Assembly (NCBI GenBank): GCA_964638415.1
Contig: CAZWYP010000001.1
Span: forward strand, 53,706 to 117,705
Reading direction: 5' to 3'
Source of the DNA: an uncultured Gammaproteobacteria bacterium
Lineage (GTDB): Bacteria; Patescibacteriota; Patescibacteriia; UBA1558; GWA2-36-10
Length of the DNA: 64,000 nucleotides
Part shown: piece by piece, positions 4,675 to 57,330 of the stretch
Layout of the letters: each line of letters starts with the position of its first letter
How positions within the stretch are numbered: position 1 is the first letter of the stretch
The notes under the pieces: model-generated
What the model was told of the DNA's origin: nothing
What the model saw: only the letters and a program-made list of their open reading frames with translations
Databases searched by the model: none
Position numbers and translations under genes: made by a program

Positions 4675-4886
4675 CTTGTTAATAAGCTGGTGGGTTGTTG
4701 GTGGTTTTCTAAAAAAACCAAAAACAACAAAAATAAAAGAGCTCTAATTATTAACAGGATATAAAAACAAAACTCCCTGCTTTACCTCCGTTTTACTAAG
4801 CATTTTTGCCTTTTTTCAACTTAACAACATATCAACAGGCCCTACTACTACTGTTTATATAAATAATAAAATCTAATTTTAAGAGT

Positions 4887-21287: not shown

Positions 21288-21338
21288 TAATTAAAGCAAG
21301 CCAGATACAGGCAGTTTGCTAGAAGAAAGAAAAATATT

Positions 21339-32848: not shown

Positions 32849-33709
32849 ATGTCAAAAGTTAGAAAAGCCATTATTCCGGTAGCAGGACTAGGCACTCGCT
32901 TTTTGCCAGCTACCAAAGCCCAGCCCAAAGAAATGCTGTCGTTAGTGGATAAGCCGATTATCCAGTACATCGTAGAAGAAGCCGTAGCTTCGGGAATTGA
33001 GGAGATTATTTTTGTTACTTCGCAGAATAAGCGGGCAATTGAAGATCATTTTGACCGCAATTTTGAATTAGAATACCGCTTAAGGCAGAAGCATAAGAAT
33101 AAAGTATTGGAAGAGTTGTTAGCAATTTCCGATATGGCCCGCTTTATTTATGTTAGGCAAAAAACTCCCAAAGGATCAGGTCACGCTGTGCTTTGCGCGC
33201 GGGAATTAATTGGCGATGAGCCCTTTGCCTTGTTCTACGGAGATGATGTGGTGGATAGCAAAGTCCCAGCCATGAAACAGCTGATGAAAGTCTATGATAA
33301 ATACAATGACGTGGTTATTGGTGTTACTAAGGTAAATAAGAAAGATACTAGCAAATATGGTATTGTTGATCCGATTATGCTGGACGAGAAAACAGCGCAA
33401 ATCAAGAGGATAGTAGAAAAGCCAGATCCAGCCAAAGCTCCGTCCAATTTAGCTGTGACCGGAAGATATATTTTGCCGCCAGCTATTTTTGACTTATTAG
33501 CGGAAGCTAAGCCCGCTAAAGACGGTGAGATTTATATGACGGAAGCGATTGATAAGTATATCAAACAGCAAGCCGGTTATGCTTGCGCTTATTCCGGCAC
33601 CTACTATGACTGTGGCAATAAGCTGGGATTCACCAAAGCAGTAATTAACTTTGCCCTCAAACATCCGGATATTAGGCAGCCACTAAAAAAGTATTTAAAA
33701 GAATTATAG
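32849..33709 (+). CDS. galU: UTP--glucose-1-phosphate uridylyltransferase
   Basis: N-terminal KAIIPVAGLGTRFLPATKAQPKEML, and VEKP later in the sequence. 286 aa. Confidence 0.9.
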   Translation: MSKVRKAIIPVAGLGTRFLPATKAQPKEMLSLVDKPIIQYIVEEAVASGIEEIIFVTSQNKRAIEDHFDRNFELEYRLRQKHKNKVLEELLAISDMARFIYVRQKTPKGSGHAVLCARELIGDEPFALFYGDDVVDSKVPAMKQLMKVYDKYNDVVIGVTKVNKKDTSKYGIVDPIMLDEKTAQIKRIVEKPDPAKAPSNLAVTGRYILPPAIFDLLAEAKPAKDGEIYMTEAIDKYIKQQAGYACAYSGTYYDCGNKLGFTKAVINFALKHPDIRQPLKKYLKEL

Positions 33710-35076: not shown

Positions 35077-36149
35077 AAAAAATAAACTGGTTTATTATTT
35101 CCCTTATATTTTTTTCGGCACCAGTAGTAGCTAGGGCAGGAATATTGGATGCTTTAGGTTGTATTCCTACCGGCACTTGCGGTTTGGCTGATGTTGAGCT
35201 CGGTTTTCAATTATTAACTAACTGGTTATTGTCAGCTATTGGCGCCTTGGGCTTATTATATTTTATCTGGGGGGCTGGCCAGTGGATCACTTCTTACGGC
35301 CGAGCAGAAAAGGTTTCTCATGGCCGAGAAATCATGATGGGATCGGTAACAGCTATAGTAATCGCTTTGGTTAGTTATGTATTAATTCAGTTTTTTGTTA
35401 ATGATGTTTTATTGGGAGGAAATAATAATGAATTAAGGATTTCTCTGGAGTGCGTAAATGCCGCTCAAGGAAAAGTTTGTAATGAGCCATTAAGAAACTA
35501 CGTCTGTAGCGGCACGTTTACTGAGGATGATAAGAAGACTTACAGCAATCTTTGTGTTACCCGTTGCCAGTTGCAGAATATTACCGGCGTACCCGGTGAT
35601 TGGAGTTGCTTAGTCAAGGGTAGTTTTATTGATAATGATCGGGTAGAAAAAATGGAAAGCGCTTGCCCGACAGAAGACTATATTTGTGTTAACACTCAGA
35701 CAGTCTCTAAACAAACTTTTGTGCCGCCTAGTGGCGGAGTTGGCGGCACAGGCTCTTGTGGCGGATTGGATGTTAGAGGCATTAATACCGCTCAGTGCAA
35801 TGATGCTTCTGCCGGCTTAACGGCTTTGTTAAGATGTTTAAGCTCTTTGCCTAATTTTCAACAGCAAGTAGTGATTACGAGTATTTCTGATGACCGTCAT
35901 ATTGGCAATTTGCAGGACTGCCAAGGAGATAGATATAATAGCAGCAGCTGTGTTCATACGCGCAACTCCTGTCATTATGGCGGAAGAGATTTGCGGCCAT
36001 ATTCTTGTGCAGTAGATTTGGCTTTAAGAGGCGGCGGTATTAGTTTTAGTGATATAGAGGCTATGGCTGACGGTTGCGGCGCTCAATATACCCTTAATGA
36101 AGGAGATCATGTTCATGCCAGTGTTTCCGGATGTAATTGTGATAATTAA
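35073..36149 (+). CDS. TrbC/VirB2-like T4SS-pilin-fold protein fused to a Cys-rich C-terminal domain ending in a putative LAS/M15-like zinc peptidase module
   Basis: Signal peptide, then two hydrophobic helices flanking WITSYG and a basic loop (shared with the four downstream paralogs). This is followed by about 240 aa with more than 20 Cys. The C-terminus (SCHYGG...SCAVDL...ADGCGAQY...GDHVHASV) resembles Peptidase_M15 / DUF882 zinc ligand motifs. Confidence 0.6.
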   Translation: MKKINWFIISLIFFSAPVVARAGILDALGCIPTGTCGLADVELGFQLLTNWLLSAIGALGLLYFIWGAGQWITSYGRAEKVSHGREIMMGSVTAIVIALVSYVLIQFFVNDVLLGGNNNELRISLECVNAAQGKVCNEPLRNYVCSGTFTEDDKKTYSNLCVTRCQLQNITGVPGDWSCLVKGSFIDNDRVEKMESACPTEDYICVNTQTVSKQTFVPPSGGVGGTGSCGGLDVRGINTAQCNDASAGLTALLRCLSSLPNFQQQVVITSISDDRHIGNLQDCQGDRYNSSSCVHTRNSCHYGGRDLRPYSCAVDLALRGGGISFSDIEAMADGCGAQYTLNEGDHVHASVSGCNCDN

Positions 36150-41296: not shown

Positions 41297-42004
41297 ATGA
41301 GCGGACATTCAAAATGGGCGACTACCAAGCGGGCTAAGGCCGCGGTTGACGCTAAACGCAGCAATTTATTTACCAAATTATCTAAGAATATCATTATTGC
41401 CGCCAAGCAGGGAGCAGACCCCAATGCTAATTTCAAATTAAGGCTGGCTATCGACAAAGCCCGTGCTTTCAGCATGCCCAAGGATAATATTGAACGGGCC
41501 ATTGCTCGGGCTACTGGCGCAGGTTCTGATGCCCAAATGGAAAGTTTGGTGTATGAAGCTTATGGACCGGAGGGTGCAGCGATTATTATTGATGTGGTAA
41601 CGGACAGTCGCAATCGTTCAGTGTCCAATATTAAGCATATTCTGGCTAAGTATGATGGCAAGCTGGGTAATGCCGGCAGCGTGCTCTGGATGTTTGATTT
41701 GAAGGGGGAAATTGTTTTAGCCAAGACACAGTTAACTGAAGCAGAAGAATTAATAGCCATTGAAGCTGGTGCAGAAGATATTGTGCCGGATGAAGAAGGA
41801 GTGTTGGTTATTACCAGTCAGCATGAATTGGAGACAGTAAAGAATAAGTTAGCGGCTTCCGGTTTGGAAATTAAATCCTCTGCCCTTAATTATTATCCTA
41901 AAGAGAAAGTAGTGGTTGCCGACAAGGATAAGTTGCTAAGATTATTAGATGCTTTGGATGATGACGATGATGTCAATAATGTGTATACTAACGCAGATAT
42001 TTAA
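41297..42004 (+). CDS. yebC: YebC/PmpR family DNA-binding transcriptional regulator
   Basis: MSGHSKWATTKRAKAAVDAKRSNLFTKLSKNIIIAAKQGADP is the canonical YebC N-terminus. 235 aa. Confidence 0.93.
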   Translation: MSGHSKWATTKRAKAAVDAKRSNLFTKLSKNIIIAAKQGADPNANFKLRLAIDKARAFSMPKDNIERAIARATGAGSDAQMESLVYEAYGPEGAAIIIDVVTDSRNRSVSNIKHILAKYDGKLGNAGSVLWMFDLKGEIVLAKTQLTEAEELIAIEAGAEDIVPDEEGVLVITSQHELETVKNKLAASGLEIKSSALNYYPKEKVVVADKDKLLRLLDALDDDDDVNNVYTNADI

Positions 42005-42501
42005 TGGCTAGTTCAGCTAAAATTATTTTAGGCATAGATCCCGGCTTAGCGGATACCGGCTTTGGCGTTATTAGCCTGCAGCCCAGCCTGACTTTTTTAA
42101 CCGCCGGCACCATTAGGACTAAAAAAGATTTAACTACTCCTGCCCGCTTGCAGATTATTTTCACGGAAGTAAAAAAACTCTTAGCAGAGTTTAAGCCAGA
42201 TCTAGTGGCTATTGAAAAATTATTTTTTGCCCGCAATGTAACTACTGCTCTAGAAGTCGGTCAAGCGCGGGGCGTGGTATTATTAGCTGCCGCTAGTATT
42301 AATAAGCCAATTAGAGAGTTTACTCCGTTACAGGTCAAACAGGCAGTGACGGGTTCTGGCAAAGCCGACAAGCGGCAAATCGGCTTAATGGTCAAAACCT
42401 TATTAAAATTAGACAGCGTGCCCCAGCCGGATGATGCGGCTGACGCCTTAGCGATTGCCATCTGTGCTGCGGCCAATAATTCCAAATTAATTAAAGCATG
42501 A
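42004..42501 (+). CDS. ruvC: crossover junction endodeoxyribonuclease RuvC
   Basis: ILGIDPGLADTGFGVI (catalytic Asp) and RNase H-like fold length (165 aa). Start overlaps the yebC stop. Confidence 0.92.
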   Translation: MASSAKIILGIDPGLADTGFGVISLQPSLTFLTAGTIRTKKDLTTPARLQIIFTEVKKLLAEFKPDLVAIEKLFFARNVTTALEVGQARGVVLLAAASINKPIREFTPLQVKQAVTGSGKADKRQIGLMVKTLLKLDSVPQPDDAADALAIAICAAANNSKLIKA

Positions 42502-43979
42502 AGAATTTAAAAATCGTCAGTATTGCTTCTGAAGTTGATCCGTTTGCCAAAAGCGGCGGCTTAGCCGATGTGGCCCGTTCCCTGCCTAAGTCTCTTTACC
42601 GCTTAGGCCATGAGGTGATTATCATCACCCCGCTTTATGGCAAGGTGATGGATAAGGATAAATTCCACTTGGAACAGATTTACCAGGATGTTAATCTTCA
42701 TATTGATAGCAATAACACCGTCAAAGTCAGCTATTACCGCGGTGAGCTTTTGCCCGGATTAAAAGTTTACTTTGTCGGCAACGATAAGTATTTTTCCCGG
42801 CGCAAGGATCTTTACGGCTCTACTCATGAGAATGCCCGCTTTTATTTATTCTCGGTAGCCGCCTTAAAGCTTATCTCCCTGCTTAAATTCAAAGCAGATA
42901 TTATCCATTGCCATGACTGGCATACCGGCTTAATTCCCTATTTAAAGAAAACCCGCTTTAAGGCTAGTAAGACCTTAGCGCAGGCAGCCACAGTTTTTAC
43001 CATTCACAACTTAACTTACCAGCTAGGCTCTAATTGGTGGGAAGTGCCGGTAAAAAACCGCGATCAGGGCAAAAAAGCTTTGCCGGAATTTTCCGATCCG
43101 GCTTTGGAGTATATTAATTTTGCCAAGCGGGGGATTTTGTCTGCGGATATCATCAACACTGTTTCAGAAACTTATGCGCAAGAGATTCTGCGCAAGCATT
43201 TCGGTCAGGACCTGCACCGCATCCTACTGAATCGCCAGCATAAATTATTCGGCGTAGTTAATGGCATAGACTACAATGAGTATAATCCCAAAACTGACAA
43301 AGGCTTGCATAAGAACTATACGCCAGAAACTTTAGCTAAGAAGAAAAATAATAAGCGGTATTTGCAGGAGCATTACCAATTGCCGGTTAAAGACAATTTT
43401 CCACTGATCGGCCTGACCTCAAGAATCGTGGAGCAGAAGGGCTTTGACCTGATCTTAGAAGTCTTACCTACCATTCTATTGCGCGATGTGCAGCTAATTA
43501 TTATGGGAGACGGGGATAAGGAATATTTAAAGAAGCTTAATAAATTGAAAAAGAAATTCCCGGAAAAATTACAGATAGTGCCTTTTGACAGTGAGATGGA
43601 AACCTCCATTTATGCCGGCGCGGATATGTTCCTGCTACCCTCCAGATTTGAGCCCTGCGGCATTAACCAGCTGATCGGTTTGCGTTATGGCTGCGTGCCT
43701 ATAGTGCGCTCTACCGGCGGTTTAGGAGACACGGTAGATAATTTCAGCCCAGATGAAAAACCACAGGGCAATGGCTTTACTTTCAAGAATTACAGCAATA
43801 AGGAATTGCTGGTAGCCATTACCCGCGCTTTGGAAACTTACAAATACAAGGAAGTTTGGCAGGATTTAGTTAAGCGCGGTATGCAGGCCTCCTTTTCCTG
43901 GGAATTACCAGCGCAAAGGTATTTACAGTTATATAAAAAAGCCAAAAAATTTAAAGATGAAGAAAATAACTTGGGTTAA
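42498..43979 (+). CDS. glgA: glycogen/starch synthase (GT5, NDP-glucose dependent)
   Basis: N-terminal KxGGL motif (AKSGGLADVARSLPKSL), CHDWHTGL, C-terminal PSRFEPCGINQL. 493 aa. Confidence 0.9.
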   Translation: MKNLKIVSIASEVDPFAKSGGLADVARSLPKSLYRLGHEVIIITPLYGKVMDKDKFHLEQIYQDVNLHIDSNNTVKVSYYRGELLPGLKVYFVGNDKYFSRRKDLYGSTHENARFYLFSVAALKLISLLKFKADIIHCHDWHTGLIPYLKKTRFKASKTLAQAATVFTIHNLTYQLGSNWWEVPVKNRDQGKKALPEFSDPALEYINFAKRGILSADIINTVSETYAQEILRKHFGQDLHRILLNRQHKLFGVVNGIDYNEYNPKTDKGLHKNYTPETLAKKKNNKRYLQEHYQLPVKDNFPLIGLTSRIVEQKGFDLILEVLPTILLRDVQLIIMGDGDKEYLKKLNKLKKKFPEKLQIVPFDSEMETSIYAGADMFLLPSRFEPCGINQLIGLRYGCVPIVRSTGGLGDTVDNFSPDEKPQGNGFTFKNYSNKELLVAITRALETYKYKEVWQDLVKRGMQASFSWELPAQRYLQLYKKAKKFKDEENNLG

Positions 43980-45102
43980 TTTTTTGCATATTTACCAGCC
44001 ACCTTGGCAGCAACCGGGAGTAATTAGGCAGGCGGCCATAGAAAGCTATGATTATCTCCTTACTTTGCTGGAAAAGTATCCCCGCTGCCGTTTGACGCTT
44101 AATATTGCCGGCGTATTGGTTGAACAGCTGGAAACTATTGCCCCAGAATTATTAGTTTCCCTGCAGAGCTTAGTGGCTCGAGGCAGAGTGGAATTAACTG
44201 GTTCAGCCAAGTATCATGCCCTATTACCTTTATTGCCGGTGGCGGAAGCAGAGCGGCAGATTTTGCTTAACCAGGAAACCTTGAGTCGTTATTTTAATTT
44301 CCAGCCTCGGGGATTTTATCTGCCGGAAATGGCTTACAGCAGCCAAGTGGCTAAATTAATTAAAGAGCTTGGCTACCAATGGCTAATTTTAGATCCCATT
44401 ACTTATGCCGGACAAGTAGATAACACTGTTTTGTATAATCTTAAAAACATCGGCTTGTCAGTAGTCTTTAGAGATCGGCAGATTTCCAAGAGTTATCCCG
44501 CGGAAGTGATATATAACAAACTGGAAAAAGATTTTAAGGAAGAAGTAATTATTACCGGCACTGACGGGGAAATGTACGGCCATTACCATGAAGACTGGCA
44601 GGGGCATATTGAAAAGGTCTTAGCTTCCCCTCAAGTGCAGGCCATTGGCATCAGCGAATATTTAGCCGGACTCACTAAGAAAAAAGAAATCAGCTTGCGC
44701 ACTGCCAGCTGGGAAACCACGGAAAAAGATCTGCAGCAGAAAATTCCCTTTGCCTTATGGCAGCATCCGCAGAATAAAATACACAAACTGCTTTGGCAGC
44801 TGGTGGCTTTAGCCCAAGCGGCGATTGCCAAATATCCTGAAGATGATAATTTCTTTTGGGCTAGAGAGCATTTGGATCGCGGCTTGTCTTCCTGCACTTT
44901 CTGGTGGGCTTCAGCCGTCAAGCCTTCAGAGTTCTCTCCCTTAACCTGGAATCCGGACATGATTGATAACGGCTCGGAAGAATTAATCCGTAGCATTCGC
45001 TCTTTGTCTTCTGCCACCAAACAGGAGAAACTGCAGGCAGAGAAAGTTTACATTGAATTGAAAAAAGTCACTTGGGAAAATCATTGGGAAAAATATAATT
45101 AA
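43957..45102 (+). CDS. glycoside hydrolase family 57-like protein
   Basis: The N-terminal FLHIYQPP...LTLNIAGVLVEQL resembles the GH57 catalytic (beta/alpha)7 N-terminus. Embedded between glgA and a kinase gene. Shorter than characterised GH57 branching enzymes. Confidence 0.55.
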   Translation: MKKITWVNFLHIYQPPWQQPGVIRQAAIESYDYLLTLLEKYPRCRLTLNIAGVLVEQLETIAPELLVSLQSLVARGRVELTGSAKYHALLPLLPVAEAERQILLNQETLSRYFNFQPRGFYLPEMAYSSQVAKLIKELGYQWLILDPITYAGQVDNTVLYNLKNIGLSVVFRDRQISKSYPAEVIYNKLEKDFKEEVIITGTDGEMYGHYHEDWQGHIEKVLASPQVQAIGISEYLAGLTKKKEISLRTASWETTEKDLQQKIPFALWQHPQNKIHKLLWQLVALAQAAIAKYPEDDNFFWAREHLDRGLSSCTFWWASAVKPSEFSPLTWNPDMIDNGSEELIRSIRSLSSATKQEKLQAEKVYIELKKVTWENHWEKYN

Positions 45103-45106
45103 ATTT

Positions 45107-46189
45107 ATGAATCGTAAATCCATACCAGACAGTTTAAAAAAGCAAATAGCTAAATTAGCCGACAGCAAGTTTATTACCAAAGTATTAACTGAGCAGCTGC
45201 CTAATTTTTATCCGGATTTTAAGAAATTAGCCAAGCTTAAGATTATTCCTCACAAGAAGCATATTGGTAAAACTTCCGCAGTTTTTGTCATTGAATACCA
45301 GCTTAGTTACTTTGCCGCGGCTAAGCAGGAAAAACCCTTGCGCCTGTTTGCTACCGGCCATTCGGACGGCTCCCGTCGCTCAGCCTATGACAAGCTTAAT
45401 CTTTTGTTTAACAATGGCTTTGGCGACGGACAGTATACCGTTACCAAACCATTGTTTTTCTTAGACGAGCAGCAGGGATTTTTTTATGAAGCTTCACCGG
45501 GACGCAGCCTTTACCACTGGTTTTCTAAAGATCCTCAGGCAGATTTGACCAATGCCCTGCAATTATCTGCCGGCTGGATCCGCAAGCTGCATAATTTATC
45601 TATTAAAGAGCGTTTTGCTTTTCCGCAGTTTGCCATTGCTAATATGATTCCTGCACCAGACAAATTCTTAGCAGATTTCCGCAAGAGCAATCCAGAATTG
45701 GGAGACTGGGTCAGTGAAATGGTTAATACCATGCAGACCTGGGAGGCAAAATTCAACCAGGAGCATGATTTGGGCTTAATTTATGGAGATTACCATCCAG
45801 AGAATGTAATTGTAGACGGCCTGCAGGCTAAAGGGCTTAAGATGATTGACTTTACCGATGTCGCTTTGGGCGATCCAATGATCGACTTAGGTACTTTCTT
45901 GGAGCAGTTCTATTTCATGAGCCAAGCATATATGACTCCGGCCAAAGTCAAAGCCTACAAAGAGTATTTCCTGGCTAATTATTTCAACCAGGAGCTTAAA
46001 GACTTGCCCAGCCATTATTTCCAAAGGATCAATCTCTACCAAGCCTGGACTGCTATGCGCACTGCTGTCTTTATCTTCTACCAGAACAAGCCCAATTCAG
46101 TGAACGATGTCTTGGGAGATGCGGAAAAGTATTTGAAATTATTAACTGAGGCTAAAAAGCAGATTAGCCTGCACCACCATGAAGCATAA
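45107..46189 (+). CDS. APH/ChoK-type phosphotransferase (kinase-like fold), possible sugar kinase
   Basis: Brenner motif YGDYHPENVIV and metal-binding IDFTDVALGDPMIDL. The glgA context suggests, but does not prove, a maltokinase-like role. Confidence 0.6.
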   Translation: MNRKSIPDSLKKQIAKLADSKFITKVLTEQLPNFYPDFKKLAKLKIIPHKKHIGKTSAVFVIEYQLSYFAAAKQEKPLRLFATGHSDGSRRSAYDKLNLLFNNGFGDGQYTVTKPLFFLDEQQGFFYEASPGRSLYHWFSKDPQADLTNALQLSAGWIRKLHNLSIKERFAFPQFAIANMIPAPDKFLADFRKSNPELGDWVSEMVNTMQTWEAKFNQEHDLGLIYGDYHPENVIVDGLQAKGLKMIDFTDVALGDPMIDLGTFLEQFYFMSQAYMTPAKVKAYKEYFLANYFNQELKDLPSHYFQRINLYQAWTAMRTAVFIFYQNKPNSVNDVLGDAEKYLKLLTEAKKQISLHHHEA

Positions 46190-46748
46190 AATTATTTTTG
46201 AAGGAGCGGAATTAGCCGGTAAGAGTTATCTATTAAGTCAGGTATATAATTACTTGGAACCTAAGTATAATTCCGGAGGAAGAATCCTTGACGGCTGCCA
46301 TTGGTTTAACTGCGATGTCGGCCTGTATGGCACGCCTTATGGCCAAACTACCTTGCAGAAATTCTTGGAACTGATGGAAGAGCTTGATGAAGCCAATGTC
46401 ATGCTGGAAAAATTCCATTTAGCCGAAGCAGTTTACCAACAGCTTTACCATGGCCAGGCTTTTAATTTTAAGCCTTTAGAAGAACGCTTGCAGAAGATCA
46501 AGGCCAAGATAGTCTTAGTTACTTTCCAAGAAGACGAGGAGCTAATTAAGCACCGCTTAGCAGATCGCTTAAAGCTCTATCCCCATTATGCTAAAATCGC
46601 CCAAGCGCCCCAAGCCTATATTTACCAGCAGCAGTTATATAAACAGCAGATTAAAGATAGCCAGCTTGAGCACTTAATTGTGGATGCCACTAAATTACCT
46701 AATGATAGTTTAGTTGATGAAATCCTAACTTTCTTAAAAGAAAAATAA
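46179..46748 (+). CDS. P-loop kinase (deoxynucleoside/nucleotide kinase-like)
   Basis: N-terminal IIFEGAELAGKSYL P-loop. 189 aa. Start overlaps the upstream gene. Confidence 0.5.
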   Translation: MKHKIIFEGAELAGKSYLLSQVYNYLEPKYNSGGRILDGCHWFNCDVGLYGTPYGQTTLQKFLELMEELDEANVMLEKFHLAEAVYQQLYHGQAFNFKPLEERLQKIKAKIVLVTFQEDEELIKHRLADRLKLYPHYAKIAQAPQAYIYQQQLYKQQIKDSQLEHLIVDATKLPNDSLVDEILTFLKEK

Positions 46749-46751
46749 AAT

Positions 46752-47624
46752 ATGTTAAGCAGTAAATTTGTAGATTTGCAAATCCATTCCCTTTACTCTG
46801 ATGGAGATTATACCCCCACCCAATTAGCTGCCTTGCTTAAGCATTATAATATTGCGGTAGCGGCTTTGACTGACCATAATACCGTCAAAGGCGTGCCGGA
46901 ATTTGTAAAAGCCTGCCAGAAGCTGAAAATAAAGCCCATTGCCGGCATTGAATTGTATGTGAAGTTTAATAATAAGCATTTGCATTTATTAGGATACAAT
47001 CTGGATATCCATAATAAATTCTTGCAGGCAGAGCTGGCTAAAATTCACTGGCGCAAATACCAGCTGCTAAAAAGTATTGTTTCCCCCTTAAAGAAAAAAG
47101 GCTTAGTAATTGATCCAGAAAAATTATCTCAAGAGCCCGCTGATTATATCGGTATGAACAATCTTTTGCACCACATTGAAGCTAATCCGGAAAATGTCCG
47201 GCAAATCCAAAAGACTCTAGGCAACCAGTTTTACGAGCATTGGCAGGTGATAGTGAAATACTTTGTCAAAGGCAGGAATACCTATTACCCGGAAGTATTT
47301 ATTCCCGTCAAATTAGGCCTTAAGATGATTCAGCGCGCTGGCGGTACTGCTATTCTAGCCCATCCTGGACAGCAGTTAAGATTTGAAGAGGACTACCTTA
47401 TCCGGCGGTTAGTTAAATTAGGTGTAGCCGGTATTGAATGCTTTTCTTCCCACCATAAATACAGCCAAATAGCCCATTATCTGCGTTTGGCTCAGCAGGA
47501 AAAGATCATTGCCACTGGCGGTTCAGATTTCCATGGCGATCTGGAAGACAAGTTAGCGATTAAGCGGCATTGGGATTATACCTTACTGCCTTTTAAGCTT
47601 TACCAAGACATTAAAAAATTCTAA
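46752..47624 (+). CDS. PHP family metal-dependent phosphoesterase
   Basis: N-terminal DLQIHSLYSDGDYTP and later ALTDHNTV, then AHPG. This is a PHP-domain His/Asp motif series. Confidence 0.75.
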   Translation: MLSSKFVDLQIHSLYSDGDYTPTQLAALLKHYNIAVAALTDHNTVKGVPEFVKACQKLKIKPIAGIELYVKFNNKHLHLLGYNLDIHNKFLQAELAKIHWRKYQLLKSIVSPLKKKGLVIDPEKLSQEPADYIGMNNLLHHIEANPENVRQIQKTLGNQFYEHWQVIVKYFVKGRNTYYPEVFIPVKLGLKMIQRAGGTAILAHPGQQLRFEEDYLIRRLVKLGVAGIECFSSHHKYSQIAHYLRLAQQEKIIATGGSDFHGDLEDKLAIKRHWDYTLLPFKLYQDIKKF

Positions 47625-47630
47625 ACAAGA

Positions 47631-47662
47631 CTCCTTAAGCTTTAAAACTTAAGGAGTTTTTT
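47631..47662 (+). terminator. rho-independent terminator
   Basis: CTCCTTAAG-ctttaaaa-CTTAAGGAG hairpin followed by TTTTTT. Confidence 0.8.
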
Positions 47663-47697
47663 ATTACTCTTAAATTATGATATAATTCTCCTGTAAA

Positions 47698-49185
47698 ATG
47701 TTTAACAGAAACAAAAATAAACCAGTAGTATTATTTGCCGGCGCTGAAATTGCGCCTTTGGTTAAGGTAGGAGGCTTAGGCGATGTGATGGGCTCTTTGC
47801 CCAAAGCGCTAGCTTCTTTAGGAGTGGACGTTAAGATTATTATCCCCTACTATGGCGCGATTAAATTGCCAAGTAAGCAAGTTAAACTAGTCAAAGCTAA
47901 TCTCCGCCTTAAGCTTGACGGACAGTTAAAGAAATTCAGTCTGTACCAGACTTCCTTACCTAATACCAAGATTCCCGTTTATCTTATTGCTTCACCGCTG
48001 TTTAAGGGAGAGGAAGTATATATTGGCAAAAGAAAGTATGTAAAGAAGAATGTCTATTCTCGCGGCTCGCAGGATATTGAAAGATTTGTTTTCTTTTCCA
48101 AAGCGGTTGTTGAAACAATTAAGCAAGTGCCCTTAAAGGTAGACATTGTCCATTGCCATGACTGGCATACAGCTTTAATTCCCACTTTTATTGATGAAGA
48201 AAGCTTACATGATTACGGTTTTTACAATTTAAAGACTTTGTTTACCATCCATAATCTAGCTAACCAAGGAATTGCCGGTTTAGATATTATTGACTACGCG
48301 GCTTTAGATAAAAAGCTGACACCGGCTATTATGGAGGATTATTATGATCAGGATGGTGATAGGATTGATTTGATGAAAATCGGGATTCTGACCGCTGACT
48401 TAGTTAATACCGTCAGCCCAAGTTATGCCAAAGAAATTTTAACTAAGGCTTATGGTGCTGGCTTACAAGAATATCTTAAGCGCAGGAAAAAGCATTTATC
48501 CGGGATTATTAACGGTATCGATACTCAAATATTCAATCCCCAGCAAGACAAGAATATTAAAAAAAGATACACTGCCAGTAATTTTTCTACTGCTCATTTA
48601 GTCAATAAGAAAGGTTTGCAGCAATCTGTTAAACTGCCAATAGTTTCTGCTCCAGTCTTTGGCTTAGTCAGCCGCTTAGTTAAGCAAAAAGGCTTAGACA
48701 TACTATTGCCAACTTTAGAGCAATTGCTTAAAGAAGAGGATATTCAAGTAATTATCTTAGGTTCCGGCCAGGAAGAATATGAACAGGCTTTACGCAAGTT
48801 AGCCAGGAAATATTCTAAGAAGCTAAAGGTTAAGATTGGGTTTAATTTGAAGCTAGCTCAGCAGATTTATGCCGGCGCGGATTGGTTTTTAATGCCTTCC
48901 CAGTTTGAGCCTTGCGGTTTAGGCCAGTTAATTGCTATGCGCTATGGCTGTCTGCCAATCGTGCGCAAAACCGGCGGATTAAAAGATACGGTGAAGCATA
49001 AAAGAAATGGCTTAGTATTTAGTCAGTATAAAGCTAAGTCCTTGGTTAAAGTTATTAGGCAGGCAATTAAAATTAGCAAACAGCCAGTAAAGATTAATAG
49101 GATGGTAAGATCTGCTTTAGCAGCAGATAATTCCTGGACAGTGTCAGCTAAGCAATATCTTAAGCTATATAACAAATTAAAATAA
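47698..49185 (+). CDS. glgA: glycogen/starch synthase, second paralog
   Basis: KVGGLGDVMGSLPKALASLG, CHDWHTAL, PSQFEPCGLGQL. The preceding AT-rich spacer begins with the 47631..47662 terminator and should also carry this gene's promoter. Confidence 0.9.
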   Translation: MFNRNKNKPVVLFAGAEIAPLVKVGGLGDVMGSLPKALASLGVDVKIIIPYYGAIKLPSKQVKLVKANLRLKLDGQLKKFSLYQTSLPNTKIPVYLIASPLFKGEEVYIGKRKYVKKNVYSRGSQDIERFVFFSKAVVETIKQVPLKVDIVHCHDWHTALIPTFIDEESLHDYGFYNLKTLFTIHNLANQGIAGLDIIDYAALDKKLTPAIMEDYYDQDGDRIDLMKIGILTADLVNTVSPSYAKEILTKAYGAGLQEYLKRRKKHLSGIINGIDTQIFNPQQDKNIKKRYTASNFSTAHLVNKKGLQQSVKLPIVSAPVFGLVSRLVKQKGLDILLPTLEQLLKEEDIQVIILGSGQEEYEQALRKLARKYSKKLKVKIGFNLKLAQQIYAGADWFLMPSQFEPCGLGQLIAMRYGCLPIVRKTGGLKDTVKHKRNGLVFSQYKAKSLVKVIRQAIKISKQPVKINRMVRSALAADNSWTVSAKQYLKLYNKLK

Positions 49186-50132
49186 TGTCCAAGCAAGTAA
49201 AATCTGAAATCCGCAAAGATTATATCCAGGAGAAGTATGTAATTATTGCCCCTAAGCGCGGTAAGCGTCCGCATGAGCTTAAAATCACTGCTCCAGTCAA
49301 GCCAATAGTTAGCAATGATGCTTGCATCTTCTGCCCGCATAATTTGTTGTCAGTACCCAGCCTTTACCAGCAGGGGCCTAAAGCCAATTGGCAGATCAAG
49401 GTTATTAAGAATAAATACCCAGCGGTGTCTTTGAATAATCCTAAAGCCTATGGCCAGCAGGAAATAGTAATTGAAACTGGAGACCATGTTAAAGAAATGG
49501 AAGATCTGTCTGTTAAACAGATTGCCGATATTCTCAAAGCTTATGCTGCCCGCACCAAGTCAATTGCTAAGAATAAGAAGATAGAGTATATTTTGATTTT
49601 TAAAAACAATGGCGGTTCAGCCGGAGCAACTTTGCAGCATACGCATTCCCAGATTTTTGCTACTCAGTTCTTACCTCCCCACTTGCTAGATAAAAGTCAA
49701 CGTCAGCAGCAATATAAGCTGCAGCATAAAAGCTGTGTTTACTGTGATGTCATAAAGAAAGAAGCTAAAGGCCCTCGTTTAATCTGGCAGGATAAGCAGG
49801 TCATTGCTTTTACTCCTTATGCTTCTAATTTTAATTATGAGGCTTGGATTCTACCTAAAAAGCATTATGATAATATTACTGACTTAACCGCTAAAGACAG
49901 ATTGTCTTGGGCTAGAATACTTAAGCATATTTTAAATAAGATTTCCCAACTTAATCTGCCTTACAATTTCTATTTCCACCAAGTAATTAATGATAATGAC
50001 CAGCATTTGTATATGAAGATAGTTCCCCGCGGTTCTATTTGGGCGGGAGTGGAAATAGGATCAGGTTTAGTGATTAATCCTATTCTACCGGAAGAAGCAG
50101 CTAAATATTATCGGGAGGGGATAAGTAGATAA
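49185..50132 (+). CDS. GalT-family HIT nucleotidyltransferase (galactose-1-phosphate uridylyltransferase / NDP-glucose phosphorylase-like)
   Basis: Zn site CIFCP, and active-site HxHxQ present as LQHTHSQ. Two-domain length (315 aa). Start overlaps the glgA stop. Confidence 0.7.
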   Translation: MSKQVKSEIRKDYIQEKYVIIAPKRGKRPHELKITAPVKPIVSNDACIFCPHNLLSVPSLYQQGPKANWQIKVIKNKYPAVSLNNPKAYGQQEIVIETGDHVKEMEDLSVKQIADILKAYAARTKSIAKNKKIEYILIFKNNGGSAGATLQHTHSQIFATQFLPPHLLDKSQRQQQYKLQHKSCVYCDVIKKEAKGPRLIWQDKQVIAFTPYASNFNYEAWILPKKHYDNITDLTAKDRLSWARILKHILNKISQLNLPYNFYFHQVINDNDQHLYMKIVPRGSIWAGVEIGSGLVINPILPEEAAKYYREGISR

Positions 50133-50140
50133 CCACATGA

Positions 50141-50401
50141 TTAATAGTAAATATCGTGGTCGCCAACTGAATGGAAGTAAACTGTGTGTTTATCAGCAGA
50201 AAACTCAAAGATTATCCGATATTTATAGCCAATAGAAAAAGACAAAAACCCACTTAACCTGCCTTTCAGTTTGTGGGTTTTTAGTTTGGAATTAAAAGGA
50301 TTTTTGCGGAAAATCACCTCCTGTTTTTCTGCCAAATCTTTGACTTCGCTAGGCAGCTTCTGGTACTCTCTAGCGAATTTTGAACTGTAGATTATCTCCA
50401 T
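50141..50401 (-). CDS. type II toxin-antitoxin system RelE/ParE family toxin
   Basis: 86 aa. KTHKLKGRLSGFLSFSIGYKYRIIFEF...VYFHSVGDHDIY matches the RelE/YoeB-type fold signature. Located 5 nt downstream of an RHH antitoxin gene. Confidence 0.75.
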   Translation of the reverse strand: MEIIYSSKFAREYQKLPSEVKDLAEKQEVIFRKNPFNSKLKTHKLKGRLSGFLSFSIGYKYRIIFEFSADKHTVYFHSVGDHDIYY

Positions 50402-52904: not shown

Positions 52905-54332
52905 TTAACTCACCCTCCCAAACTTCCTTTTCCCGGCTTGGATAATATCTCCAGACTTTAAGTTAAGCACCTGCTGCCAATCACTTACTTTCTGCTGGTT
53001 AATCTTCAGACCTCCTCCTTCTACTAATCTTTTACCTTCAGACTTGGAGGAAACAAACTTTAACTCTACCAATAAATCAGCGGGTAGAATATTTTTACTC
53101 TTTAAGCTAAAGATTGGTATTTCCTCTGGCATCTCTTTTTTAGCAAACACCCTATTAAAATTAACCTCAGCTTCGTTTGCAGCTTTGGTTGAATGGAAAA
53201 TTTTAATGATTTCTTTAGCCAGCAAAATTTTAAAAGTTTTGGGATTAGCACCTTGTTTCATTTCTTTTTCTATTTTAGTTATCTCTTCCATTGGTAAACG
53301 AGTGCATAATTCTAGCCCAGGTAAAATCATACCATCGGTCCACGACATAATTTTACCAAACATTTCTTCTGCTGTTTCATTAAGCATGGCCATATTTCCT
53401 TCAGTTTTTCCCATTTTTACGCCTTGGTCATCGGTAAGTAATTTAGTAGTAAGGACAAACTTTTCTTTATTAAGCAAAGATTTCATCAAAGTTCTTCCTG
53501 CTAACATATTGAAAGTCTGATCATTACCGCCAATCTCGCCGTCCACTTGCATTGCTACTGAATCATAGGCTTGCATCAGCGGATATAAAAGCTCCTGTAG
53601 ATAGATCGGTTTTGGTTTTATTTGTATAAGATCATCTTTATCAATGGGAGTATTTTTCTTACAGTGAGGGCATGTTGTTGTATTGTTTTCGACTCTCGCT
53701 GTATCAAATGCCTTATTGTTAATAAATTGGATTGGTGATGGCCAGACAAAATTACAATATCTACATTTTACATATGTTTTGTGGGTTATTCTTTGAATCC
53801 CGCTTTTTTCCAGTAATATTCTAATTTCTTCACTTCCAAACATTCTTTGTGCAAACATATCACGATCCAATAATTGTTGGACAGTAAAATTAGTAGTTAG
53901 TTGCAGGACATCAGCAAAATTCATTTTACTAAACCACTGGCTATTGTATTTTAACTGTGCTTTATTGATTCCGGAAAAATTGATAATTTTACTGATTTGT
54001 TTTTTGTAATCTTTAGCGTTAGCTAATACTTCCTCCCTAGTTAACACTCTACGGGTAGCTTTTTTGTCTGTCGGGTCGCCAATCATAGCGGTATAGTCTC
54101 CAATTAGCAAGATTATTTGATGGCCTAACTCTTGGAATTGTCGGAGTTTTTCAATAATTACAGCACTACCCAGATGTAAGGTGGGCGCTGTCGGATCGAT
54201 ACCTAGGTAAAGAGTTAACCTTTTTCCTGAAGATAGTAGATTTTCCAAGTATTTTTTATCTGGGTAAACATTAGTCACCCCCCTTGTTAATAAAGCTTGG
54301 ATTTTTTCCCTATTTGTGTTAATTTTAGGCAT
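52905..54332 (-). CDS. tyrS: tyrosine--tRNA ligase with an inserted CxxC...CxxC zinc-ribbon segment
   Basis: HIGH-like GIDPTAPTLHLGS, KMSKS-like KMGKTEG, and a C-terminal S4 domain. A ~55-60 aa insertion lies between FAQRM and LLYPLMQAYD and contains CRYC and CPHC. Confidence 0.85.
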   Translation of the reverse strand: MPKINTNREKIQALLTRGVTNVYPDKKYLENLLSSGKRLTLYLGIDPTAPTLHLGSAVIIEKLRQFQELGHQIILLIGDYTAMIGDPTDKKATRRVLTREEVLANAKDYKKQISKIINFSGINKAQLKYNSQWFSKMNFADVLQLTTNFTVQQLLDRDMFAQRMFGSEEIRILLEKSGIQRITHKTYVKCRYCNFVWPSPIQFINNKAFDTARVENNTTTCPHCKKNTPIDKDDLIQIKPKPIYLQELLYPLMQAYDSVAMQVDGEIGGNDQTFNMLAGRTLMKSLLNKEKFVLTTKLLTDDQGVKMGKTEGNMAMLNETAEEMFGKIMSWTDGMILPGLELCTRLPMEEITKIEKEMKQGANPKTFKILLAKEIIKIFHSTKAANEAEVNFNRVFAKKEMPEEIPIFSLKSKNILPADLLVELKFVSSKSEGKRLVEGGGLKINQQKVSDWQQVLNLKSGDIIQAGKRKFGRVS

Positions 54333-54387: not shown

Positions 54388-57330
54388 ATGTCAGAAAATT
54401 TCAATTCCAGCTTTCACCGGAGAAAAATTGGGGACACTGCTCCCCAGTTTTCTCGCAAGCAGGTGAGCGATATCAACGAAGTAGTAGTTAAGCGTCCTAA
54501 GCGTAAATTGGCTTGGTTTGCTTGGCGTCCCAAACTGCCTAAATTACCGTCTAATAACCGCGGTTGGTTTTGGCGTTTTCTCGGCCGCCACTGGCGCAAA
54601 TTAGCCGGCTTAGCCTTTGCTTTAGGCATTATGTTTGTGGGCTTAGTAGCCTGGTATTCCAGGGATTTGCCGGATCCTAACAAGATTATTGACCGTTCAG
54701 TTGCTTTAAGCACCAAGATTTATGACCGGACTGGGGAAGTGTTATTGTATGAAGTGCATGGTGCGGAAAAAAGGAGCTTAATTAAAATTGACGAGCTGCC
54801 CGAGTATGTTATTAACTCCACCATTGCCATTGAAGATAAGAATTTCTACAACCATGGGGGCATTTCTATCTGGGGAATTCTCCGCGGACAGATTGTACCG
54901 CGTTTGCAAGGCAAGCGCTCTCAGGGTGGATCTACTCTAACCCAGCAGTTTGTCAAAAACGCTATCCTTACCGATGAAAGAAAATTATCTCGCAAGATTA
55001 AGGAGTGGATTCTATCTTACCGCATTGAGCAGAAGTTTTCCAAGGAAGAAATTCTCCAATTGTATTTCAATGAGATACCCTATGGCTCTTCCGCTTATGG
55101 CGTAGAAAGCGCGGCCCAGTATTATTTTGACAAACCAGCCAAAGATTTGACTCTAGCGGAAGCAGCTATCTTAGCAGCCTTGCCGCAAGCTCCCAGCTAT
55201 TATTCCCCCTACGGCAACCATAAGGATTTGCTAATTGCCCGCCAGCAGACTATTTTGGATTTAATGGTTGAGCAGGATTATATTACCGAAGAAGAAGCAG
55301 AGACTGCTAAAAGCCAGGAATTAGTTTTTAAGAAAAGAGCAGAGCAGATTAAAGCACCGCACTTTGTCTTTTATGTCCAGCAGTTATTGGCAGAAAAGTA
55401 TGGAGAGACTTTGCTGGAACAATCCGGCTGGAAAATAATTACCAGCTTAGATTGGGAAAAGCAGCAGAAAGCGGAAGAGATTTTAGCCGAGCAAGCTGAG
55501 AAGAATTTAGAAAATTACCAGGCCAATAATGCGGCTTTAGTGGCTTTGGATGTGCCGACGGGAGAAATAATTTCCATGGTCGGCTCTAAAGATTATTTCA
55601 ATGATGAAATTGACGGCCAGGTTAATGTAGCGGTTTCTCCCCGCCAGCCGGGAAGCTCGCTAAAGCCCTTGGTATATTTAACCGCCTTTAACCAAGGCTA
55701 TCGTCCAGACACTATTTTACTGGACTTAAAGACTAAGTTCGGCTACAAAGCCGACGGCTCGGCCTATGAGCCGAATAACTATGACGGCCAGGAGCACGGA
55801 GCAGTGACTATGCGCCAAGCTTTAGGCGGATCACTGAATATCCCGGCGGTTAAAACTTTGTATTTAGCCGGAGTAAGGAATGTCACAGATTTAGCCGCTG
55901 ACTTTGGTTATACTACGTTAACGGATCCTGACCGTTATGGCTTGTCTTTAGTCTTAGGCGGCGGTGAAGTTAAATTATTGGAGCATGTTAATGGCTATGC
56001 GGCTTTGGCGCGGGAAGGAGTTTACCAGGACAGCGTTGCAGTGCTAAAGATTGAAGATTCAACCGGTAAAGTAATTGAAGAAAAGAAAGACATAGACAGC
56101 CGTCGGGTAATTGACAAAAAACCTGTTAGATTATTAAACAGCGTTTTGTCAGATAATGGCGCTCGGGCTTGGATTTTTGGTGAAGCTAATTATCTGACTT
56201 TGCCGGACCGGCCAGTGGCTGCCAAAACCGGTACCACTAACGATTACCACGATGCCTGGACCGTTGGTTTTACACCGCAAGTAGCAGTCGGTGTTTGGGT
56301 AGGGAATAACGATAACACTGAAATGAAAGCTGGGGCTGACGGTTCCGTAGTCGCTGCTCCTATTTGGAATAAGGTTATGAGGGAATTGACTAAAGACCTG
56401 CCAGTAGAAGGCTTCAAGACTGAAGAGCTGGATGCTTGCGACAAGGCAATGGTCTGCGGTAAATTAGCCGGTGAAGAGATTATTAAAATAGACAAGCTGT
56501 CCGGTAAATTAGCTACGGAACTTACGCCATATAACCAGATTGAAGAGAGAAAATATATGCAGGTGCATAATATCCTGCATTATGTGAATAGAGCAGATCC
56601 CTTGGGACCGGCACCAGCTGATCCTAGTACTGACGGCCAATATGCTTTCTGGGAAGAGCCGGTGAAGGCTTGGGCAGAAGAGCAGGGGTATTTGACTGAA
56701 GCGCCACCTACAGAATATGATGACATTCATTTGCCGGAATACCGCCCCAGCATTTCCTGGTTAAGTCCGCAGGACAACCAAACAGTCAGGGAGAATGAGT
56801 TTACTTTCCGGGTTAATGTTTCCGGACCGCGGCCAGTAGAAAGAGTTGAGTATTTTATCGACAGCAGAAAAGTCGGACAAAGTACCAGTGCTCCTTTTGA
56901 CTTTAACTACCAGGTTAATCCACTGCTAAACAATGGTCGCCACCAGTTAAAGGCCATGGCTTTTGACGGCTTGGACAATTGGCAGGAATCAGTAATTAAT
57001 ATTGACCTGCAGACTGAACGATCATCTTCAGCGTTTAATATCATTTGGCTTAATCCGGAAAACGGCGCCAATTTAACGGCTAACAGTTTGCCTTTACCGG
57101 TGCGCTTAAGTATTACCAACCCAGAGAATATTAGTAAGGTAGATTTTTACTATATCAATCCAGATCAGAATACTAATTGGTTCGGCTATGTGGAAAATCC
57201 CTCTAGTGATGTAGTGGTTAACTGGCAACCAGCTTCTACTGCTCCCGGTATTTACCAGCTCTATGTCGTCGTTAAGGACACCGGCAATAATTTAATCACT
57301 GCCCCGCCAGTTATTATCAACTTGGAATAA
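54388..57330 (+). CDS. penicillin-binding protein 1A family (GT51 transglycosylase + transpeptidase) with a C-terminal extension
   Basis: GT51 motifs (EDKNFYNHGGIS, GGSTLTQQ), transpeptidase SxxK-type region (PGSSLKP), KTGTT. The ~250 aa C-terminal extension is beta-rich. Confidence 0.9.
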   Translation: MSENFNSSFHRRKIGDTAPQFSRKQVSDINEVVVKRPKRKLAWFAWRPKLPKLPSNNRGWFWRFLGRHWRKLAGLAFALGIMFVGLVAWYSRDLPDPNKIIDRSVALSTKIYDRTGEVLLYEVHGAEKRSLIKIDELPEYVINSTIAIEDKNFYNHGGISIWGILRGQIVPRLQGKRSQGGSTLTQQFVKNAILTDERKLSRKIKEWILSYRIEQKFSKEEILQLYFNEIPYGSSAYGVESAAQYYFDKPAKDLTLAEAAILAALPQAPSYYSPYGNHKDLLIARQQTILDLMVEQDYITEEEAETAKSQELVFKKRAEQIKAPHFVFYVQQLLAEKYGETLLEQSGWKIITSLDWEKQQKAEEILAEQAEKNLENYQANNAALVALDVPTGEIISMVGSKDYFNDEIDGQVNVAVSPRQPGSSLKPLVYLTAFNQGYRPDTILLDLKTKFGYKADGSAYEPNNYDGQEHGAVTMRQALGGSLNIPAVKTLYLAGVRNVTDLAADFGYTTLTDPDRYGLSLVLGGGEVKLLEHVNGYAALAREGVYQDSVAVLKIEDSTGKVIEEKKDIDSRRVIDKKPVRLLNSVLSDNGARAWIFGEANYLTLPDRPVAAKTGTTNDYHDAWTVGFTPQVAVGVWVGNNDNTEMKAGADGSVVAAPIWNKVMRELTKDLPVEGFKTEELDACDKAMVCGKLAGEEIIKIDKLSGKLATELTPYNQIEERKYMQVHNILHYVNRADPLGPAPADPSTDGQYAFWEEPVKAWAEEQGYLTEAPPTEYDDIHLPEYRPSISWLSPQDNQTVRENEFTFRVNVSGPRPVERVEYFIDSRKVGQSTSAPFDFNYQVNPLLNNGRHQLKAMAFDGLDNWQESVINIDLQTERSSSAFNIIWLNPENGANLTANSLPLPVRLSITNPENISKVDFYYINPDQNTNWFGYVENPSSDVVVNWQPASTAPGIYQLYVVVKDTGNNLITAPPVIINLE

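Follow-up and report, generated by a model that had tools for sequence, protein, structure and literature searches.

The described systems closest to the locus treated here are the classical GlgC-GlgA-GlgB pathway, the glgA operon of Pseudomonas, which carries a 4-alpha-glucanotransferase function, the GlgE pathway, in which a TreS-Mak fusion is established, and the galacto-N-biose/lacto-N-biose (GNB/LNB) operon of Bifidobacterium. The plant protein At5g18200 has to our knowledge no pathway partner or physiological role, and McCoy et al. are said to have found in 2006 that it lacks galactose-1-phosphate uridylyltransferase (GalT) activity. PMC6329318 and bioRxiv 10.64898/2026.09.13.751320 describe At5g18200 as an ADP-glucose phosphorylase, and the literature (e.g. 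PMC4136846) reflects a long-standing argument over the existence of ADP-glucose sources besides GlgC/AGPase in bacteria and plants. Here we analyze a block of seven plus-strand genes in a 64-kb stretch of DNA, hereafter the window, which is likely a chromosome segment of a member of the Patescibacteria (candidate phyla radiation, CPR) near the replication origin. The block encodes two GT5 glucan synthases, a short GH57 enzyme, an APH-fold kinase, a P-loop kinase, a PHP-domain protein, and a GalT-like enzyme.

The genomes of Patescibacteria are very small, and their capacity to generate ATP is limited. The CPR literature refers only to "genes for starch or glycogen metabolism", or lists GH57 among amylose-degrading enzymes. 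The reading that we tentatively favor, at somewhat less than an even chance, is that the block is a two-module operon for intracellular alpha-1,4-glucan metabolism with the module roles proposed below and that this operon is vertically inherited and typical of the Patescibacteria.

Organization and conservation of the gene cluster

The first-pass annotation had placed seven plus-strand open reading frames (ORFs) at 42498-50132, and all of them were found at exactly those positions; the families it had named (two GT5, GH57, APH, PHP, and GalT) hold by Pfam and NCBIfam. The features discussed below are the following.

42498-43979, plus strand: GlgA-1, GT5 alpha-1,4-glucan synthase (module A)
43957-45102, plus strand: short GH57, 381 aa (module A)
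45107-46189, plus strand: APH-fold small-molecule kinase (module A)
46179-46748, plus strand: P-loop kinase, 189 aa, nucleoside monophosphate (NMP)/deoxynucleoside-kinase fold (accessory)
46752-47624, plus strand: PHP-domain phosphoesterase, TrpH/YciV-like (accessory)
47627-47660, plus strand: terminator-like hairpin with a 13-bp stem and a T run, from a consensus scan (between modules A and B)
47678-47686: TGATATAAT motif in the 73-nt spacer (47625-47697) between the PHP gene and glgA2, 11 nt before the glgA2 ATG
47698-49185, plus strand: GlgA-2, second GT5 alpha-1,4-glucan synthase (module B)
49185-50132, plus strand: GalT-family HIT nucleotidyltransferase, apparently of the At5g18200 type (module B)
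41297-42004, plus strand: yebC, upstream context, Pfam label from related loci
42004-42501, plus strand: ruvC, upstream context, Pfam label from related loci
32849-33709, plus strand: galU, UTP-glucose-1-phosphate uridylyltransferase (TIGR01099), outside the seven-gene block

The genes are closely packed. The stop codon of ruvC and the start of glgA1 share 4 nt, glgA1 overlaps the GH57 gene by 23 nt, and a 4-nt gap separates the latter from the APH gene, which overlaps the P-loop gene by 11 nt; 3 nt separate the P-loop and PHP genes and 73 nt the PHP gene and glgA2. The overlapping stop and start previously claimed for glgA2 and the GalT-like gene read as a 1-nt overlap (TAATG), and the GalT-like gene is, on this sequence reading, translationally coupled to glgA2. 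The block probably comprises two transcription units, glgA1-GH57-APH(-P-loop)(-PHP) and glgA2-GalT, because the hairpin at 47627-47660 and the TGATATAAT motif split it; both are pattern matches, from a consensus scan and a direct reading of the spacer, respectively. As TGATATAAT lies only 11 nt ahead of the ATG, the glgA2-GalT transcript would be nearly leaderless. Other genomes insert extra genes exactly at the boundary between modules A and B. The yebC and ruvC genes are probably co-transcribed with glgA1, as context genes rather than glucan enzymes. The antisense ORFs 44631-45020 and 49023-49340 (minus strand) lie wholly within conserved plus-strand genes and were treated as spurious.

A profile search with the kinase family retrieved relatives in at least 280 species genomes, and the best 80 loci, roughly 20 kb each, were taken. 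All 80 resemble Patescibacteria metagenome-assembled genomes, whatever titles their records carry. The gene order yebC-ruvC-glgA1-GH57-APH is near-invariant across related loci, and together with glgA2-GalT it makes up a core locus of the Patescibacteria. To count the genes, we mapped the window proteins onto the ORFs of 38 loci with sufficient flank, with a close clade of 20 loci.

glgA1: 38/38 loci; close clade 20/20
GH57: 34/38 loci; close clade 20/20
yebC-ruvC directly upstream of glgA1: 37/38 loci; close clade not counted
glgA2: 32/38 loci; close clade 20/20
GalT: 26/38 loci; close clade 20/20
P-loop: 19/38 loci; close clade 15/20
PHP: 10/38 loci; close clade 1/20

The GalT-like gene starts within 60 nt after glgA2 in 31/37 cases, and the clustering of the genes is far beyond chance. 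To offset the bias of a search that starts from the kinase, contexts were re-examined from GlgA1 homologues and from distant P-loop homologues. The kinase adjoins glgA1 or GH57 in all three GlgA1-seeded loci, and in each of them the cluster ends with a GalT-like gene; one distant P-loop homologue (L089) lies in the same cluster, and another (L090) is next to a GDE_C-like gene and lies 6 kb from a GT5 gene. That these genes belong together is thus borne out by synteny in dozens of species, also when GlgA1 or the P-loop protein serves as the seed. In L086 three GT4 genes stand in place of glgA2 and in L087 glgA2 is absent, and both loci keep GalT, which fits a role in donor supply. The two GlgA paralogues form clearly separate orthologous groups in the closer clades; in ten of the distant loci, the scores of the second copy hardly favor one group over the other.

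The first-pass annotation had called the block an island. This description does not hold, given that the GC content of the block (0.411) is close to that of the window (0.396 on average) and that synteny is kept across the phylum; we therefore ruled out a horizontally acquired island. Synteny extends into the flanks: upstream it takes in galU and the genes for a solute-binding protein and pilins, and downstream those for the tyrosyl-tRNA synthetase and PBP1A.

Some lineages insert genes between the modules, namely those for a ROK glucokinase, a GDE_C/GH100-like glucosidase, GT4, a methyltransferase, a pyruvyl transferase, or a second APH-like protein, and GH15 and beta-PGM-family HAD genes stand beside the cluster in a few genomes. 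Distant clades gain genes for S-adenosylmethionine-dependent methyltransferases (L051, L052, L054, L060, L064, and L069) and polysaccharide pyruvyl-transferase genes (L043, L044, L049, L050, and L087), and GT4 genes were gained at 13 loci. These gains recall the mycobacterial methylglucose-lipopolysaccharide locus, with its GH57, GT4, and methyltransferase genes; by this analogy there are hints that some lineages may decorate the glucan. Records titled "uncultured Gammaproteobacteria bacterium" (L005, L010, L013, L014, L019, and many others) carry the same Patescibacteria-type synteny, and such titles are probably generic mislabels.

Assignment of the enzymes

Both synthases pass TIGR02095 (cut-off 328), GlgA-1 with 505 bits and GlgA-2 with 501 bits, and GlgA-1 matches PF08323 with an E-value of 1.8e-65. 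The two share 38% identity, in agreement with the earlier description of two glgA paralogues with GT5 motifs and distinct sequences. Their catalytic motifs read KSGGL, HCHDWH, and RFEPCG in GlgA-1 and KVGGL, HCHDWH, and QFEPCG in GlgA-2. Since every species-level equivalog model scores under its cut-off for both proteins, we regard them as divergent members of the family. Their polymer product is almost certainly an alpha-1,4-glucan. Among solved structures, GlgA-1 is nearest to barley SSI (260 bits), Arabidopsis SS4 (257), and E. coli glycogen synthase (236), and GlgA-2 to the glycogen synthases of A. tumefaciens (236) and E. coli (235). Against ADP-glucose-using GT5 enzymes from bacteria and plants, the scores of both proteins lie at 230-260 bits, whereas the archaeal dual-specificity Pyrococcus type gives only 90-100 bits; both fall in the ADP-glucose-type group, a placement that is suggestive of ADP-glucose as the donor.

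The GalT-like protein matches PF01087 and PF02744, and its motif H152-T-H154-S-Q156 (HxHxQ) is invariant in 15 sequences. The family profile scores 206 bits against At5g18200, with a match over the full length, 149 against the GalT of Pyrobaculum (P. aerophilum), and 106 against E. coli GalT, so that At5g18200 leads by 57 and 100 bits, respectively. A C-terminal motif, EIG[ST]GxxINP, is common to the CPR protein and At5g18200 only. By these sequence measures the protein appears closest to the ADP-glucose phosphorylase type represented by At5g18200, and the earlier suggestion that it might act as a nucleoside diphosphate (NDP)-glucose phosphorylase gains support from this best solved relative. 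Immediately downstream of the GalT-like gene, and convergent with it, is a YafQ-like type II toxin gene (50141-50401, minus strand; PF15738, below the Pfam cut-off).

The GH57-like assignment was checked with a hidden Markov model and stands: the protein matches PF03065 with an E-value of 1.5e-34 and 120 bits (cut-off 21), and the catalytic Glu and Asp are kept. In 18 homologues, residues H11, Y13, Q14, P15, E79, E124, D203, E205, W316, and W317 show no variation. E124, at the nucleophile position, and D203/E205 correspond in the alignment to E123 and the DGE region of the 4-alpha-glucanotransferase from Thermococcus litoralis, with which the family profile is colinear across the whole barrel. 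In contrast, GH57 branching enzymes (3n8t, 5wu7, and 1ufa) and AmyC match only as separated pieces, because their insert of ~150 residues is absent from this GH57. The spacing from nucleophile to acid/base is 79 residues here (E124-D203) versus about 170 in branching enzymes, the length is 381 aa versus about 520-560 aa for the three-domain GH57 branching enzymes, and the NCBIfam branching-enzyme models give 38-50 bits versus cut-offs of 920-1000. Some branching enzymes belong to GH57, so that the lack of glgB carries reduced weight; the idea that the present GH57 fills this role was nevertheless rejected on its architecture and on the scores of the branching models. Judged by its residues and architecture, the enzyme looks active and of the transferase/amylase rather than the branching type. 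The short GH57 family comprises 243 representatives at 50% identity (E<=1e-30). Forms of about 490-520 aa with a C-terminal UVR motif are common in the family, and L088 carries two tandem GH57 paralogues.

The GH57 enzyme and the APH-fold kinase occur as one polypeptide. A 741-aa fusion (L087:10494-12716) covers both domains end to end and is recorded in NCBI (MFA6255229.1), JGI, ENA, and Logan. Two more GH57-APH fusions, of 753 and 735 aa (P0364 and P0371), come from separate 50%-identity clusters, and the three proteins share 35-52% identity along their whole length. GH57-APH is a maintained fusion; therefore, the kinase and GH57 are expected to act on the same carbohydrate. The kinase had been open to the objection that it might be unrelated to glucan metabolism, and its presence in GH57-APH fusions of three diverged lineages ties it to that metabolism. 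A GlgA1-APH fusion of 829 aa in L066 is a singleton on one 13-kb contig and has an unfused relative of 83% identity; unlike GH57-APH, it does not recur, and we downgraded it as Rosetta-stone evidence.

The APH kinase matches PF01636 with an E-value of 2e-14 and 54 bits (cut-off 23), and K50, D228-Y-H230-P-E-N233, and D248-F-T-D251 are invariant in 23 sequences. The APH fold proposed in the first-pass annotation is upheld, whereas the motif that it gave as HGDYHPEN reads YGDYHPEN. The AlphaFold model has a predicted local distance difference test score (pLDDT) of 94, and fold searches with it return generic APH-fold relatives. The resemblance to maltokinases that had been noted was not recovered: maltokinase is absent among the nearest structural or sequence relatives of the kinase, which is no nearer to maltokinase than to other APH-fold kinases. 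Its substrate is probably a sugar, and the kinase is functionally tied to GH57 and GlgA1. As a ROK glucokinase co-occurs in several clusters, the APH kinase would not be simply a glucose 6-kinase.

Both the P-loop kinase and the PHP protein vary by lineage and are accessories. The former has no Pfam or NCBIfam match, but its Walker A motif (GAELAGKS) and its dTMP-kinase/YorR (NMP-kinase) fold agree with its earlier designation as a P-loop kinase. Its invariant residues include K15, S16, E77, K78, R126, D129, and R130; the E-K pair after strand 3 and the RxxDR lid are invariant. Foldseek on its AlphaFold model (pLDDT 94) gives dTMP kinases and B. subtilis YorR as top matches, with TM-scores of 0.6-0.7, and a profile search against the PDB reaches YorR at an E-value of 0.012 only. 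Because no curated family model (e.g. PF02223) matches, the protein should be treated as a separate family. The PHP protein matches PF02811 (E-value 2.4e-16) and scores 132 bits to the model of the 3',5'-nucleoside bisphosphate phosphatase (cut-off 400) and 100 bits to that of RNase RNM (cut-off 375), below both cut-offs. Only its PHP domain is established, and by sequence it seems nearest to nucleotide-acting enzymes of the TrpH/YciV type. Where present, the PHP gene always lies between APH and glgA2, and most of the loci that have it belong to distant clades.

Donor supply, proposed mechanism, and alternatives

No glgC, GH13, or GT35 gene was found among the scanned annotated ORFs of at least 120 aa in the window, a scan that set aside an rpoC-like ORF (14275-18162) and two apparently spurious overlapping ones (21104-21571 and 53044-53520), or in eight Pfam-annotated related loci. 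Within the window, then, the earlier statement that no glgC, GH13 glgB, or glgP could be recognized is upheld. The sole NTP-transferase found is GalU, which the first-pass annotation had already noted upstream of the block and which scores 363 bits to TIGR01099 (cut-off 327) versus 46 bits to the GlgC model TIGR02091 (cut-off 425). A galU-like gene lies similarly far upstream in L005, L017, L074, L086, and L088. Directly after galU, at 33712-36149, come an SBP_bac_1/8 gene for a sugar-type solute-binding protein, a gene for a protein of 358 aa that falls in no known family, and pilin genes; the galU-solute-binding protein pair is kept in L086 and L088, and no permease or ATPase genes stand beside it.

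A non-canonical glucan pathway, as proposed in the first-pass annotation, is plausible on this evidence. Our proposal starts from the observed families, catalytic residues, synteny, fusions, and nearest relatives, from which we infer the substrates, the reaction directions, and the absence of GlgC. In module B, the HIT enzyme would interconvert glucose 1-phosphate (Glc-1-P) plus ADP and ADP-glucose plus phosphate without GlgC, through a covalent His154-AMP intermediate, and would thereby supply or drain the donor of the adjacent GT5 synthase. The net reaction of module B would be Glc-1-P + glucan(n) <-> glucan(n+1) + Pi. Since the synthase releases ADP again, ADP would act catalytically, and the pair would be thermodynamically equivalent to a glucan phosphorylase. 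McCoy et al. reportedly gave in 2006 an equilibrium constant of about 5-40 for ADP-glucose phosphorolysis, towards ADP and Glc-1-P; with such a value the pair could run either way according to the Glc-1-P/Pi ratio. In module A, GlgA1 would elongate chains, GH57 would not branch the glucan but cut alpha-1,4 segments or transfer them, by amylase-type or disproportionating activity, and the APH kinase would phosphorylate a small sugar released or needed by GH57. The conversion of glucose to Glc-1-P is the most parsimonious kinase reaction because consumers of Glc-1-P (the GalT-like enzyme and GalU) are encoded nearby; no consumer of maltose 1-phosphate is recognizable in the cluster. The glucan-related inserts of other lineages (ROK glucokinase, GDE_C-like glucosidase, GH15, and beta-PGM-family HAD) count in favor of the two-module operon.

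Several points weigh against this reading. The GalT gene is missing from 12/38 loci; at 149 bits the Pyrobaculum GalT is not far off either, so that the enzyme may have another nucleotide and acceptor specificity; with the equilibrium given above, net synthesis would depend on a high ratio of Glc-1-P to Pi; galU is present, and UDP-glucose-using GT5 GlgA has a precedent in Pseudomonas; and the co-occurrence of ROK and APH shows only that the two kinases are non-redundant.

A bolder version of the two-module operon is a glucan cycle free of GlgC and GlgP, in which ADP-glucose phosphorylase and a GT5 synthase would together act as a reversible phosphorylase and an APH-fold enzyme often fused to GH57, as an anomeric sugar kinase of a new type, would provide Glc-1-P from sugar that GH57 sets free. 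In such a cycle, Glc-1-P would be stored and retrieved with catalytic ADP only and no ATP-to-PPi cost. We consider this version doubtful and offer it as speculation.

The alternative that survives best, unlikely in our judgment but deserving serious weight, is an ordinary pathway whose genes are dispersed: the GlgAs would use UDP-glucose from GalU, or ADP-glucose made through a glgC located elsewhere, the GalT-like protein would be a Leloir-type uridylyltransferase, and the P-loop and PHP genes would be passengers. The GalT-like enzyme would then salvage galactose or another hexose 1-phosphate made by the APH kinase, like NahK and GalT2 of Bifidobacterium. The Pyrobaculum GalT has uridylyltransferase activity. 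Such a pathway is favored by galU, which scores above its equivalog cut-off and is conserved as a neighbor on the upstream side, by the use of UDP-glucose by a GT5 GlgA in glgC-less bacteria, for which Pseudomonas is the precedent, and by the GalT-like protein itself, which marginally passes TIGR00209 (galT_1; 106 bits versus a cut-off of 102) and is related to the Pyrobaculum enzyme, treated as a genuine class I GalT in bioRxiv 10.64898/2026.09.13.751320. The same source documents an APH-fold anomeric kinase that is paired with an enzyme of the GalT family. However, no Epimerase (GalE) or GHMP galactokinase Pfam match occurs in the eight related loci or the scanned window ORFs, and the partner of the GalT-like gene in the 31/37 cases given above is a glucan synthase gene rather than the kinase gene. 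The best relative of the GalT-like protein is the enzyme described in PMC6329318 as an ADP-glucose phosphorylase, both GlgAs group with ADP-glucose-type enzymes, and P-loop homologues that lie outside the cluster still have glucan genes around them, all of which count against this alternative.

An analogue of the GlgE pathway appears improbable. The APH kinase would here be a maltokinase that makes maltose 1-phosphate, and GH57 would either yield maltose, like TreS, or extend the glucan, like GlgE. The GH57-APH fusions do parallel the GH13(TreS)-maltokinase fusions, although our PDB search returned only a TreS:maltokinase complex (5jy7), not a fusion, and GH57 enzymes are retaining with a Glu nucleophile, like GH13. 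On the other side, maltokinase is not among the nearest relatives of the kinase, no GH13 GlgE or TreS occurs at any locus, two nucleotide-sugar-type GT5 synthases would be redundant, and we know of no GH57 enzyme that uses a sugar-1-phosphate donor.

Equally improbable is a glucan phosphorylation cycle, in which the APH and/or P-loop kinase would phosphorylate chains and the PHP protein dephosphorylate them, like plant GWD/PWD and SEX4/LSF2, so as to keep a poorly branched, starch-like polymer soluble and degradable: kinase and phosphoesterase genes do lie inside a glucan-synthase cluster, no branching-type enzyme was recognized (GH57 lacks the branching architecture), GlgA-1 is nearest to the plant starch synthases SSI and SS4, and one GlgA1-APH fusion exists (L066), but that fusion is a singleton with an unfused relative of 83% identity, the cycle would not be universal because PHP is present in 10/38 and P-loop in 19/38 loci, the nearest PHP families act on nucleotides, and APH-fold enzymes normally use small molecules.

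The coupling of an At5g18200-type enzyme to glycogen synthase constitutes a genetic context found in dozens of sampled species. If the bolder version, the cycle free of GlgC and GlgP, is correct, it would provide the first physiological context for an orphan plant enzyme and the first genetically anchored GlgC-independent route to ADP-glucose. A glucan operon of 7-8 kb kept beside yebC-ruvC suggests that a storage glucan matters to episymbiotic life, and a route that avoids the ATP-to-PPi step would suit the economy of reduced genomes. Three uncharacterized families are newly tied to glucan metabolism: the short GH57, the GH57-fused APH kinase, and the P-loop family, for which Pfam has no model.

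Window context and comparison with known systems

Outside the cluster, the window contains the landmark genes listed below, together with recA, several T4SS-pilin genes, DUF2079, uvrB, and a family A DNA polymerase gene. Rfam and tRNA scans of the window gave only tRNAs, all distant from the block.

3301-5987: dnaA and dnaN
10810-14247: rpoB
54388-57330: PBP1A-type gene, label borrowed from Transgly and Transpeptidase homologues in related loci

Some of the neighboring genes show features of their own. The tyrosyl-tRNA synthetase (52905-54332, minus strand) has 475 aa, versus 397-402 aa for its syntenic counterparts in related loci; its catalytic domain is split into two Pfam stretches, and the extra segment (CRYC...CPHC) resembles an inserted zinc ribbon. 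Two Wzy_C/O-antigen-ligase-like genes (23854-25179, plus strand, and 25079-26503, minus strand) share about 100 nt at their 3' ends and adjoin a Polysacc_synt flippase-like gene. Just upstream of recA, at 20619-21287, lies a gene for a protein with HTH_25 (RodZ-like) and Glucodextran_B domains, and this pair is syntenic in L090.

In the full-text literature, no published description was found of this operon, of a GH57-APH fusion, or of a bacterial gene of the ADP-glucose-phosphorylase type linked to glgA. The locus is a real, undescribed variant of alpha-glucan metabolism, all of whose parts come from known superfamilies, and its mechanism is the one we infer above.

With the classical GlgC-GlgA-GlgB pathway the locus shares ADP-glucose-type GT5 polymerases and an operon that includes glucan-remodeling enzymes. 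It differs in having no GlgC, GH13 GlgB, or GlgP in the window or the related loci, two paralogous synthases, a HIT enzyme at the expected donor-forming position, and two extra kinases plus a PHP protein. The Pseudomonas glgA operon likewise has a GT5 synthase without glgC, a GalU, and a 4-alpha-glucanotransferase function; however, Pseudomonas makes trehalose with GH77 MalQ, TreY/TreZ, and GlgX, none of which are present here, and its operon has no GalT-like, APH, or P-loop genes. In the GlgE pathway (TreS-Mak and GlgE), a glycoside hydrolase is also fused or adjacent to an APH-fold kinase in an alpha-glucan locus, whereas here the hydrolase is GH57 rather than GH13, the kinase is not specifically related to maltokinases, GlgE is absent, and nucleotide-sugar synthases are present. 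The GNB/LNB operon of Bifidobacterium (NahK and a class II GalT) similarly joins an APH-fold sugar kinase and a GalT-family enzyme, while our locus has a class I, At5g18200-type GalT, no phosphorylase or epimerase, and a link to glucan synthesis instead of hexosamine catabolism.

Among individual enzymes, the nearest solved relative of GH57 is the T. litoralis 4-alpha-glucanotransferase (PDB 1K1W), whose colinear barrel includes the regions of the nucleophile Glu and the acid/base Asp. It has 659 aa versus 381 aa for the CPR GH57, which is without the C-terminal beta-sandwich domain, ends in a Trp/His-rich helical region of its own, and reads HxYQP where the T. litoralis enzyme reads HxHQP. 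For the GalT-like protein, the best solved relative, At5g18200 (PDB 1Z84/2H39), has the HxHxQ nucleophile motif and EIG[ST]GxxINP in common with it; unlike At5g18200, the CPR enzyme is encoded by a gene coupled to that of a glucan synthase.

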